Below are positions 11,711 to 13,942 of a DNA stretch of 64,000 bases, piece by piece. Under the pieces are notes generated by a model. It was not told the DNA's origin, did no database searches, and saw only the letters and a list, made by a program, of their open reading frames with translations. Position 1 is the first letter of the stretch; each line of letters starts with the position of its first letter. The position numbers and the translations under genes were made by a program. Source of the stretch: Candidatus Bathyarchaeia archaeon (GTDB lineage Archaea > Thermoproteota > Bathyarchaeia > Bathyarchaeales > Bathycorpusculaceae); the NCBI GenBank assembly GCA_038727135.1, contig JAVYWL010000001.1:736001-800000 (forward strand), read 5' to 3'.

Positions 11711-12270
11711 GATATCTCGAAGAGTTTGGCAAGTATGTGGCTATTGCCGGCTTCAAGGATGTGAAAGTGGCTGATGTTGAGGGTTTTCTTGAAACTGTTA
11801 GAAAATGTTTGACAAAAAATGTGGAAGCCCAGTTTTTTGATGCCGAGTTTGTGGCTACTTGGCAGCACTTGTATTTTGCAGTTTTAAATGCCTTGAACGC
11901 CTTCAAAAACGGCGTTAACATTTCAAAAAACCTAGCTGTGGAGGTGCTGCTTTATGCTTCTGCCCAGCGTCAAATTCGAAAAGCCATGAGCCTTCTTGGA
12001 GTAAAACCCAACTGTGAGGCGATTGCAGTTCTCGTCTTGGGGGAAAGGGCAGAAGATGTGGAGGCAGCCCTACAAGCCATATCAAAAATTGTTGGTGGAC
12101 GGCGTGACGATGCCGTTTTGGAACTTTCACGAGAAAAGATTGAGGCTATTCAAAAAGCCTTCGAAATTTCAAACGTGGAGCTCGAGGCAGTTGTGAGGGA
12201 AAACGACTTGGAGCAAGCCCTAGTTAACCTAGTCATCGAGCGTGTGGCGCTCTTGGCAACTGAGCGTTAA
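11704..12270 (+). CDS. cgi121: KEOPS complex subunit Cgi121
   Basis: HLYFAVLNA...ISKNLAVEVLLYASAQRQIRKA...LVIERVAL. Confidence 0.9.
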   Translation: MLRYLEEFGKYVAIAGFKDVKVADVEGFLETVRKCLTKNVEAQFFDAEFVATWQHLYFAVLNALNAFKNGVNISKNLAVEVLLYASAQRQIRKAMSLLGVKPNCEAIAVLVLGERAEDVEAALQAISKIVGGRRDDAVLELSREKIEAIQKAFEISNVELEAVVRENDLEQALVNLVIERVALLATER

Positions 12271-12803
12271 AGCACTTTCTCCTTCACAATTGATAGAATG
12301 TCTTCCGGCTTAATCACCGAAAGCCCGGTCAACCCGCCGATAACTTCGATTAGGAGAATCTTGTCAGGCTTGTTTAGGTCCACTTTGCGTTCAATGTTGG
12401 CTGCTGCCGCCTCAATAATGTCCCTTGTTGAAGTTTCCGTGAAGCGCTTCTCAACGGTAATCCTGAAAGTTTCGTTTTTGCCGATTTTTGAGCTTAGTTC
12501 TATGGCTGCCCGCTGGATTTCCCCCAAATCTGTGCGGATAACCTTCTCTATTGGGATTATGCGCAGTGTATAGCGGAACTCGTAGGGGCGTTCTCGGAGA
12601 ATCTGCCTAAACTTTTCAATAACTTCAAAGGGGTTGAAAGCCGTTTTTGCTGCAATTAAACCAGCCACTCCAGTCTTGTCCACAACAGGTGCCGAGTCTC
12701 CGATCTCGCCAAGCAAATACCAAAGTTCGGAGCAAGCCTCATCTTCGTTTCCTCTTGAAGTTGTGGCTAAAAGGTTGAAGTCCCTAAGCACATAACCACC
12801 CAC
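12267..12803 (-). CDS. THUMP domain protein (Tan1/THUMPD1-like)
   Basis: FNLLATT, RIIPIE, TFRITVEKR, KVDLNKPDKILLIEVIG. Confidence 0.9.
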   Translation of the reverse strand: MGGYVLRDFNLLATTSRGNEDEACSELWYLLGEIGDSAPVVDKTGVAGLIAAKTAFNPFEVIEKFRQILRERPYEFRYTLRIIPIEKVIRTDLGEIQRAAIELSSKIGKNETFRITVEKRFTETSTRDIIEAAAANIERKVDLNKPDKILLIEVIGGLTGLSVIKPEDILSIVKEKVL

Positions 12804-12810
12804 TATAAGT

Positions 12811-12883
12811 TTTGGTCAGTGCAGGTTAGTTGGCTTTTCACAGCTTTGGAAGGCTCCTAGCCGTCGCCTCACATCATCCCAAA
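12811..12883 (-). ncRNA. Box C/D-like double K-turn small RNA
   Basis: Minus strand reads UUUGG-G-AUGAUGU...A-CUGA-CCAAA: 5-bp terminal stem, 3-nt bulge, tandem G.A pairs and a compensatory U-A pair; second K-turn-like motif GGCU-AGGA-GC...GC-UGU-GAAA-AGCC. Confidence 0.7.
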
Positions 12884-12988
12884 TATTACTTCCATAAACA
12901 TGAATTTATCTGTTTTGATGGTTCATAAGGATTAGGCTTAAATTTATGGGCGTAGACTCTATCTTTCCAAAGTTCGGGGGAAGGGCAA

Positions 12989-13942
12989 ACGCCAAAACCC
13001 GTAATCGTTGTACATGGCGGCGCTGGAAACTGGCAGCCAGAACGCATAAACCCGGGACTTGAGGGCGTAAAAAAGGCGGCTAAAACAGGCTTTGACATTT
13101 TGGCTAAGGGTGGAAGTGCCCTTGACGCTGTTGTTGAGGCTGTCGCCGTTATGGAGGATGAAGGCGTCTTCAACGCTGGTTATGGTTCAAGCCTAACAAT
13201 AAAGAAGACCGTGGAGATGGAAGCCTCAGTCATGGATGGAAAAACTTTGAAGGCTGGGGCTGCCGGGCTCTTGCGGGACATTAGGAATCCGGTTAGGCTT
13301 GCACGAATTGTTATGGAGAAGACAGACCACGTCTTCATTGTTGGCGAGGGAGCAGAAAAGCTCGCAAAACTGTTCAACCTTGAAAGGCGGAACCCGCTTA
13401 CGGAGCTCCGCCTAAAATATTATGAGCAGGCGAAGCAAGCCCTTCTGGATGGCAAGTTTGAACTGCCAAAACTTGCAGAACTGGTTAAAAGTCATCCAGA
13501 ACTTTTTGATCTTGAAACGGTTGGCGCTGTTGCCTTGGATTTGGAGGGAAATGTTGCAGCTGCCACATCCACAGGCGGTTTTCCATTGAAGATTCCTGGA
13601 AGGATTGGCGACTCGCCCTTGATTGGATGTGGCACCTACGCCGATAATAGGAGTGGTGCTTGTTCCGCCACAGGCGTTGGCGAAATCGCCATAAGGCTTG
13701 TTTTGGCGAAGACCGTTTGCAACTACATGGAGAGCGGCAAAACCGCACAGGAGGCTGTTGAAGCCGCCATAAGACTTGTTAATGAGCGGATGGCTGGAAC
13801 CTACAACTCCATGGGTTTAATCGCCGTGGACAAGCAGGGAGAAATTGGAGCCGCCCACAACTCTAAACATTTATGTTGGGCTTATCTTAAACCTGGAATG
13901 CAGGAGCCGGAAGCGGCATTAACGGCAAAAATTCTGAAGTAA
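12989..13942 (+). CDS. Isoaspartyl peptidase/L-asparaginase (Ntn hydrolase); apparent ACG start
   Basis: The conserved PKPVIVVHGGAG N-terminus lies upstream of the ORF-track start; ETVGAVA nucleophile Thr, TSTGG, GRIGDSP, TGVGE. Confidence 0.9.
   Translation, partial: TPKPVIVVHGGAGNWQPERINPGLEGVKKAAKTGFDILAKGGSALDAVVEAVAVMEDEGVFNAGYGSSLTIKKTVEMEASVMDGKTLKAGAAGLLRDIRNPVRLARIVMEKTDHVFIVGEGAEKLAKLFNLERRNPLTELRLKYYEQAKQALLDGKFELPKLAELVKSHPELFDLETVGAVALDLEGNVAAATSTGGFPLKIPGRIGDSPLIGCGTYADNRSGACSATGVGEIAIRLVLAKTVCNYMESGKTAQEAVEAAIRLVNERMAGTYNSMGLIAVDKQGEIGAAHNSKHLCWAYLKPGMQEPEAALTAKILK

Follow-up and report, generated by a model that had tools for sequence, protein, structure and literature searches.

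A box C/D sRNA gene and its conservation

The DNA analysed here (the window) is a stretch of 64,000 nucleotides (nt) from contig JAVYWL010000001.1 of Candidatus Bathyarchaeia archaeon (assembly GCA_038727135.1, positions 736,001 to 800,000), a member of a group for which we know of no cultured representatives. Within the window, a gene for a stand-alone THUMP-domain protein of 178 amino acids, similar to Tan1/THUMPD1 (12267-12803, minus strand), is preceded on the same strand by a box C/D small RNA (sRNA) of 73 nt including its terminal stem (12811-12883). An un-annotated RNA of this type had been proposed at this place in an earlier note on the window, with acetylation guide or rRNA chaperone as its suggested function. 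The sRNA is real and conserved far beyond chance.

Read on the minus strand from 12883 to 12811, the RNA runs UUUGG G AUGAUGU GAGGCGACGGCU AGGA GC CUUCCAAA GC U GUGAAAA GCC AACUAACCUGCA CUGA CCAAA, and the stem, the boxes, the GGCU...AGCC pairing and the GC...GC hairpin given in the earlier note match the DNA exactly. The terminal stem is formed by UUUGG (12879-12883) and its partner CCAAA (12811-12815), with GGG/CCC or GUAUGGG/CCCAUAC in its place in other genera; of the 54 distinct rows of alignment A4, 53-54 retain its inner two pairs, whereas its outer pairs are weakly kept. Box C, AUGAUGU (12871-12877), is invariant in alignment A2 and absent from none of the 73 distinct sequences that were parsed, and box D, CUGA (12816-12819), is likewise invariant in A2, with CUAA in one of the 54 distinct rows of A4. 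Between these boxes lie the D' guide GAGGCGACGGCU (12859-12870), 12 nt long and invariant in most homologs; a degenerate box D', AGGA (12855-12858), with the family consensus NNGA, in which GA alone is conserved; a GC-loop-GC hairpin (12843-12854), the canonical stem of an internal kink-turn (K-turn), whose two pairs hold in 53 of 54 distinct rows while its loop varies in length and sequence across homologs; a degenerate box C', GUGAAAA (12835-12841), with a conserved UGA core; and the D guide AACUAACCUGCA (12820-12831). A helix of 4 base pairs (bp), referred to below as the clamp, joins AGCC (12832-12835) to GGCU (12859-12862). The spacer before D' measures exactly 12 nt, and that before D 15-16 nt, or 12 nt when counted from the end of the clamp.

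A covariance model (R1) was built from 16 homologs, and it scores the sRNA of the window at 98.8 bits (E 1.4e-22). Of 41 related genomes, 32 contain the sRNA by this model (E 1e-22 to 9e-5), and it was found, always on the same strand, upstream of the gene in 57 of 72 orthologous THUMP loci of public genomes, which bears out the conserved neighbourhood with a Tan1/THUMPD1-like gene that the earlier note had expected. The record titles of these 72 loci name, with few exceptions, metagenome-assembled genomes of Bathyarchaeia or Bathyarchaeota. In an even sample of the class, 37 of 151 genomes carry the sRNA, and almost all of them belong to the window's own order; by family, it is present in 21/22 genomes of f1, 5/6 of f11, 2/2 of f10, 3/4 of f6, 1/1 of f2 and 0/6 of f7.

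The clamp is supported by a rule-based parse of the 73 distinct sequences, in which 58 show a full 4-bp complement, as against 2, 12 and 2 of 73 in three controls, and by double changes across lineages, namely GGCG/CGCC, GGCG/CGCU and GGA/UCC. Owing to these counts and double changes, the second K-turn closed by GGCU/AGCC that had been proposed is credible, and both K-turn motifs, the terminal one at C/D and the internal one at C'/D' with its GC/GC stem, find support. The further extension GUGAGG/CCUGCAC is possible, with 98.5% of alignment cells paired, although only one-sided changes are seen in it. General tests of structure gave null results. A formal pair count on the 54 distinct rows of A4, an alignment that slips the register of the clamp, showed no covariation above shuffles; the fold of the single sequence was no better than that of shuffles (z 0.15, with 103 of 200 shuffles folding as well); and RNAalifold on A2 returned -6.4 kcal/mol, no covariation and a fold that disregards the K-turns.

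A scan of the whole window against Rfam found no RNA family at the gathering score, so that the match to an existing archaeal sR family that the earlier note had thought possible did not appear, and its description of an un-annotated RNA with boxes C and D stands. Under loose thresholds the best match is sR36 of Pyrococcus (RF01124; 17.8 bits, E 0.024, against a cut-off of 55). This nearest catalogued family shares with the sRNA the order of the boxes and short segments following box C and within the D guide, but several insertions are needed to align the two, and the sRNA is not a member. It represents a C/D sRNA family of one order of Bathyarchaeia, most likely of the double-guide class, that is un-catalogued in Rfam; guides for the helix-34 positions described below may be tabulated for other archaea in Dennis et al. 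(2015) and Lui et al. (2018).

Guide complementarity to helix 34 of 16S rRNA

Targets were sought by a box-anchored guide scan of the full 16S and 23S rRNAs of the same genus together with the 36 tRNAs of this genome (7428 nt), and rRNA positions in 16S follow the numbering of E. coli K-12 rrsH. Positions 1-10 of the D' guide pair with G1057-C1066 (AUGGCCGUCGCC) on the 5' strand of helix 34 through nine Watson-Crick pairs and one G-U pair, in a duplex that begins at the base adjoining D' and places a Watson-Crick pair, C5:G1061, at the fifth position. Positions 2-11 of the D guide pair with G1194-U1203 (GGCAGGUCAGU) on the 3' strand of the same helix through nine Watson-Crick pairs with one mismatch, again with a Watson-Crick pair, C5:G1197, at the fifth position, and this stretch is the single best match of the D guide in the 7428 nt of rRNA and tRNA. 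Helix 34 is located at the neck of the decoding site. At least 9 bp next to D or D' and Watson-Crick pairing at the fifth position are thus found for both guides (for the D guide with one mismatch), in keeping with the double-guide criteria given in the accessible part of Dennis et al. (2015; PMC4644070).

Taken by itself, each guide-target match is weak evidence, modestly better than chance. The strength of the case for these targets lies in the position of both 16S matches on opposite strands of helix 34, in the constancy of the matched stretches and in the fit of a variant lineage. Among the 16S rRNAs of relatives, 21 of 22 rows share one sequence for the target on the 5' strand, as do 21 of 21 rows for that on the 3' strand, and this constancy matches the invariant D' guide. 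In the B26 lineage, the D guide GACUGGCCUGCG is changed at two positions and pairs with the same stretch of helix 34 through nine Watson-Crick pairs and one G-U pair, with no mismatch. A search with the whole sRNA against 16S and 23S rRNA in RNAduplex returned long, looped and unrealistic duplexes, among which helix 34 ranked second, and was left unused.

The proteins of a C/D ribonucleoprotein (RNP) are encoded in the genome, with the fibrillarin and Nop5 genes side by side on contig C2 and a gene for L7Ae as well. It is considered likely that the sRNA is a double guide for helix 34 of 16S rRNA, acting at G1061 and position 1197, and at the same time a chaperone of its folding. According to the proposed mechanism, the sRNA would be transcribed from its own TATA-like promoter, after which L7Ae would bind its two K-turns, the terminal one at C/D and the internal one at C'/D', the degenerate boxes of the latter being propped up by the 4-bp clamp, with Nop5 and fibrillarin as the remaining proteins of the RNP. 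The D' guide would then direct 2'-O-methylation of G1061 on the 5' strand of helix 34 and the D guide methylation at position 1197 on its 3' strand, and the RNP, by gripping both strands, would chaperone the formation of the helix. The chaperone role raised in the earlier note is accordingly plausible alongside a guide role, given that both strands of helix 34 are matched, whereas an ordinary 2'-O-methylation guide, which it had named among the outcomes that would refute its proposal, is now the best reading. The self-complementarity of the arms has been considered as a mere by-product of targeting two strands of one helix; this explanation holds in part, in that such mimicry predicts about 3 pairs, in a register different from that of the GUGAGG/CCUGCAC helix.

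A number of observations weigh against methylation guidance at helix 34. The four public sequencing runs used consist of contigs that give no start, end, strand or level. Its D spacer of 15-16 nt departs from 12 nt, the D guide has its mismatch at position 8 (C1200), and shuffled guides equalled the observed best score in 20 of 300 trials for D' and 33 of 300 for D. Positions 1-4 of the D' guide double as the conserved strand of the clamp, and in one relative (G032) the clamp is preserved at the expense of one target pair. Two other candidate substrates also fit the D' guide: a hairpin of 23S rRNA, GGCUGUCGCCU, fits it slightly better in this genus, and the anticodon loop of tRNA-Asp(GUC) pairs with it less well, through eight Watson-Crick and two G-U pairs, with G34 at the position selected by the fifth-nucleotide (N+5) rule. 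The 16S modification table of Pyrococcus abyssi, as far as it is given in the accessible part of its source (PMC7005279), contains no 2'-O-methylguanosine (Gm) in helix 34.

The D guide has, in addition, drifted or been altered in several lineages. In three genera (L052, L057 and L059; G022, G015 and G023), it reads AGCCGUACUUGCA or AGCCGUACUUACA and fits not helix 34 but 16S GGGGAGUACGGCC, with A889 at the fifth position. Guide turnover has been described for archaeal C/D sRNAs in the accessible portions of two studies (PMC4644070, PMC6009581). As a separate observation, the altered D guides of these genera extend the internal clamp to 6 bp.

The strongest competing explanation retains the same type of RNP but has the D' guide mainly serve the 23S hairpin GGCUGUCGCCUU (positions 1614-1625 of the 23S rRNA of G005) or G34 of tRNA-Asp(GUC). 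The 23S site had the top score of the anchored scan, with nine Watson-Crick pairs and one G-U pair over positions 2-11, to which, by our own reading, the flanking letters add two G-U pairs at positions 1 and 12, and the invariant guide positions 11-12 can pair only with this site; tRNA-Asp, for its part, pairs with positions 1-10 and would receive N+5 on its wobble base. The hairpin varies, however, while the guide does not, with AACCGUCGUUUU in G032 and GGUCGUCGCUUU in G040, and for this reason it was rejected as the main D' target; in G032, where the 23S site is altered, the D' guide still fits 16S. In lineages of the B26 type, the D' guide carries U at its positions 6 and 11, the former of which would be mismatched to U35 of the Asp anticodon, which is unable to change. 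The best match of the D guide, moreover, is the partner strand of the 16S site. A principal substrate outside 16S rRNA is therefore regarded as unlikely, and helix 34 is retained as the target of choice.

A second sRNA of the same clamp design lies outside the window, at about 272146-272225 on the plus strand of contig C1 of this genome. Its D'/C' boxes are again degenerate, and it comprises AUGAUGA, a 12-nt guide, a UAGA-like D', a GC...GC hairpin, UGUGAUA, a GUCA/UGAC clamp, a 12-nt D guide and CUGA, and its D guide forms nine Watson-Crick pairs with 16S rRNA, with the fifth position on C1402. Position 1402 carries 2'-O-methylcytidine (Cm) in P. abyssi, yeast and human, according to the available text of one study (PMC7005279). 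That a sister sRNA with the clamp targets the Cm1402 site indicates that the clamp belongs to this lineage's ordinary build of methylation guides and does not mark another function. A crude pattern scan of the 1.55-Mb genome returned few C/D candidates, and a relaxed pattern gave 4 matches as compared with 1-3 in shuffles. Two further candidates on the plus strand of contig C1 are recorded here: one at about 535974-536040 is canonical, with a 7-bp terminal stem, a CUGA box D' and a short loop, and has its best match in 23S rRNA (nine Watson-Crick pairs), and another at about 116934-116995 has boxes C and D and a 5-bp stem with only about 32 nt between the boxes.

The THUMP gene, transcription and the question of acetylation

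The protein encoded downstream has the build of the Tan1/THUMPD1 family, an N-terminal domain plus a THUMP domain; it matches the Pfam THUMP family over residues 91-163 (E 6.2e-6), and no other Pfam domain and no catalytic domain was found in it. Compared with PDB, a profile of 15 orthologs matched only human THUMPD1 (2DIR; E 0.0011), a weak similarity, and the single protein had no match in PDB (phmmer) or in NCBIfam. A gene for Cgi121 converges on the 3' end of the THUMP gene. Judging from the alignment of orthologs, translation likely starts at GTG 12791 (MLRDFN), which is preceded by GGUGG at 12796-12800. The sRNA ends 8 nt before the first possible start, GTG 12803, and 20 nt before GTG 12791; the earlier note had placed it within about 20 nt of the THUMP start.

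THUMP orthologs occur in 35 of the 41 related genomes and are class-wide (134 of 151 genomes). Among 30 THUMP loci returned by a search, 19 show the sRNA within 220 nt upstream, and the 32 relatives that bear the sRNA comprise 21 with it at most about 130 nt upstream of THUMP, 4 with it 0.9-2.3 kb upstream on the same strand and 7 with it on another contig. Several members of one genus in the class sample carry an sRNA that is unlinked to THUMP or 25-100 kb from it. As the THUMP gene is class-wide and the sRNA limited to an order, the latter is an order-level addition in front of an older gene that was retained after the two had separated.

At a fixed distance upstream of the sRNA stands a promoter-like element consisting of an A-rich stretch and the TATA-like GAUAAAU (12904-12917, minus strand). 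In 40 of 57 loci, the first base of the motif (A/G)AUAAAU stands 32-34 nt ahead of box C, and in many of the remaining ones CUUAAAU was seen by eye at about the same place; the element presumably serves as a promoter, with a transcription factor B recognition element (BRE) and a TATA box, that sets the sRNA's 5' end. The gap between the two genes is too short in this genus to hold a second promoter, and no T-run was seen after box D, so that read-through into THUMP is likely and the sRNA and the THUMP gene probably share a transcription unit. In genera with longer spacers, T-rich runs and TATA-like motifs were noticed by eye in the upstream sequences. C/D sRNA genes that lie next to protein genes or overlap them in a conserved manner are common among archaea, according to the accessible part of one survey (PMC6009581). 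A contig from an RNA library of a relative spans the 5' part of THUMP into the sRNA (corresponding to 12605-12868), which does not demonstrate a single transcript, and the depth of public runs over the sRNA is raised in a DNA run too, owing to the piling up of conserved sequence from many relatives.

The closeness of the two genes also invites an explanation in which the RNA acts in cis, as a leader in the 5' untranslated region of THUMP whose two K-turns bind L7Ae and control translation or stability, the guides being structural only. Only 8-20 nt separate the end of the RNA from the THUMP start in this genus, with the Shine-Dalgarno-like GGUGG in between and no room for a separate promoter, its arms are able to self-pair, and L7Ae-bound K-turns in mRNAs have reportedly been found by RNA immunoprecipitation sequencing (PMC5539422). 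Yet the RNA is kept where it stands on another contig or 25-100 kb from THUMP (G025, G036, G028, G029, G113, G119, G143, G167 and others), and the spacing between it and the THUMP start can be anything from about 5 nt to 2.3 kb. The conserved nucleotides CGAC and ACUAA in its loops match rRNA, and a regulator would be expected to keep its K-turns, not 12 invariant guide bases. A cis-acting role is thus held to be very unlikely, as compared with that of a guide for helix 34.

Further upstream, about 60 nt from the sRNA, a second conserved AT-rich element, AAUUUAAGCCUAAU (minus strand, window 12935-12958), was observed, also in relatives; it may be the promoter of a divergent gene of the Asparaginase_2 family on the plus strand (about 12955-13942). 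The conserved N-terminal motif of the encoded protein, KPVIVVHGGAG, lies in a frame that lacks ATG, GTG and TTG from the upstream stop to TTG 13100, a nearby ATG (12946) is in another frame, and some relatives have an in-frame GTG inside the motif. This anomaly could result from a start codon of an unusual kind or from a frameshift, or the protein may be truncated.

The proposal that the RNA guides acetylation deserves separate consideration. Its suggested target in helix 45 can be dismissed, as the organism's own helix 45 reads UGGCCGU and not UAGCCGU and offers 7 pairs, including one G-U, as compared with 10 at helix 34; the pairing check against 16S rRNA and tRNAs that had been called for did yield rRNA targets, on both strands of helix 34, but helix 45 was not the best of them. 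A homolog of the acetyltransferase Nat10 (Nat10/TmcA) is encoded in this genome, on the plus strand of contig C2 (268857-271157). Among the 41 relatives, the Nat10 domain exceeds the Pfam cut-off in 5, and a search with the Nat10 protein of this genome found orthologs in 6, one of them a fragment; a weak match in G025 (E 2e-4), interrupted by a stop, was left out. In near-complete genomes such as G021 (98% complete, in 2 contigs), the sRNA and THUMP are present and no match to Nat10 was found. Most relatives with a Tan1/THUMPD1-like protein are therefore without detectable Nat10 (THUMP 35/41, Nat10 6/41), although Nat10 is, to our knowledge, the only known partner enzyme of an adaptor of the Tan1/THUMPD1 type. 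Since both are kept in genomes without Nat10, the presence of a C/D RNA beside a Tan1 gene is no evidence of guided acetylation.

A more specific version moves the acetylation to helix 34, with the sRNA as a helper of Nat10 and the Tan1-like protein as its partner. The D' target covers the CCG of C1059-C1060-G1061, which we take to be homologous to the yeast C1280 site that is acetylated in eukaryotes, and G1197/G1198, which we take to be the helix-34 partners of C1060/C1059, lie within reach of the D guide. If the clamp is closed, pairing of the D' guide would be confined to G1061-C1066 and would leave the CCG unpaired for Nat10, while the D guide would sequester G1197/G1198. In favour of this scheme are the Nat10 homolog of this genome and the THUMPD1-like gene that the sRNA gene adjoins. 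A role of sRNAs has also been left open by the authors of a study of TkNat10 (PMC11928934). In the small-subunit rRNA of archaea and eukaryotes, N4-acetylcytidine (ac4C) occupies the second C of CCG, and P. abyssi has it in helix 34, according to the accessible part of a study of its 30S subunit in which small-RNA guides for archaeal ac4C were proposed (PMC7005279), and ac4C1280 in yeast helix 34 is described as guided by the atypical C/D snoRNA snR4 in what is available of two further papers (PMC5464676, PMC9670809). Against it, 32 of the 41 relatives have the sRNA and 35 have THUMP, but a Nat10 homolog is found in only 6; the guide runs without a break through the CCG, unlike the two-part guides around a looped-out C described for snR4 and snR45 (PMC5464676, in part); TkNat10 is reported as active in vitro without adapters (PMC11928934); yeast Tan1 is stated not to be needed for acetylation of 18S rRNA (PMC9957541, in part); and the second sRNA built with this clamp is directed at a classic Cm site. 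Such a helper function is accordingly rated as most improbable. The original acetylation-guide idea finds no support either, in view of the contrast between Nat10 (6/41) and the sRNA (32/41), the continuous duplex, the geometry of a methylation guide, the survival of the sRNA where it is unlinked and the difference in range between THUMP (134 of 151 genomes of the class) and the sRNA (37 of 151). It is likewise most improbable that, in the minority of genomes that bear Nat10, this one among them, the sRNP on both strands of helix 34 decides on acetylation of the CCG by exposing it, with the clamp closed, or masking it, the co-transcribed Tan1-like protein being part of the circuit. Guidance of methylation in helix 34, together with a chaperone role, remains the preferred function.

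Relation to known guide RNAs and implications

The closest known parallels are sR17 and sR15 of Nanoarchaeum equitans, for helices 28 and 30, respectively, each of which has two guides for opposite strands and a proposed chaperone role in the available part of Dennis et al. (2015; PMC4644070). Like them, the present sRNA combines boxes C/D and C'/D' with two guides whose targets, although more than 100 nt apart, are partner strands of one helix, and methylation together with folding assistance is its proposed role. Unlike them, it addresses helix 34, its C'/D' boxes are degenerate (NNGA / RUGANNN) and reinforced by a covarying helix of 4 bp for which the final 4 nt of the D' guide are used, and its D spacer measures 15-16 nt.

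With respect to helix 34 itself, the yeast methylation guides snR40 and snR55 offer a likeness in target helix. Their target nucleotides differ from the site predicted here, Gm1271 and Um1269 of yeast being situated some 10 nt upstream of it, and what is shared is canonical C/D guide action on the 5' strand of the helix. Both RNAs appear as helix-34 methylation guides in the accessible portion of one study (PMC5464676).

The eukaryotic acetylation-associated RNAs snR4, snR45 and U13 (SNORD13) resemble the sRNA in being C/D RNAs, in the binding of helix 34 near the CCG (snR4) and in their association with the family of Nat10 adaptors, which here takes the form of gene neighbourhood. In these RNAs, two antisense elements flank a looped-out C on one strand, outside the D/D' rule and in dependence on Kre33/NAT10, whereas the duplex of the sRNA is continuous and abuts D', its second guide addresses the other strand, and the family lives mostly in genomes without detectable Nat10.

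The sRNA thus adds an order-limited C/D family that is absent from the catalogue to what is known of Bathyarchaeia and would provide another example of a single sRNA gripping both strands of a 16S helix, in this case helix 34. Its clamp, a 4-bp helix for which the end of the D' guide is used, is a structural variant of the C'/D' motif and is seen again in the sRNA for C1402. The conservation of the Tan1-like protein raises the question of its role where Nat10 is not found. If the reading proposed for the Nat10-bearing minority were true, the system would represent an archaeal forerunner of snoRNA-assisted rRNA acetylation.

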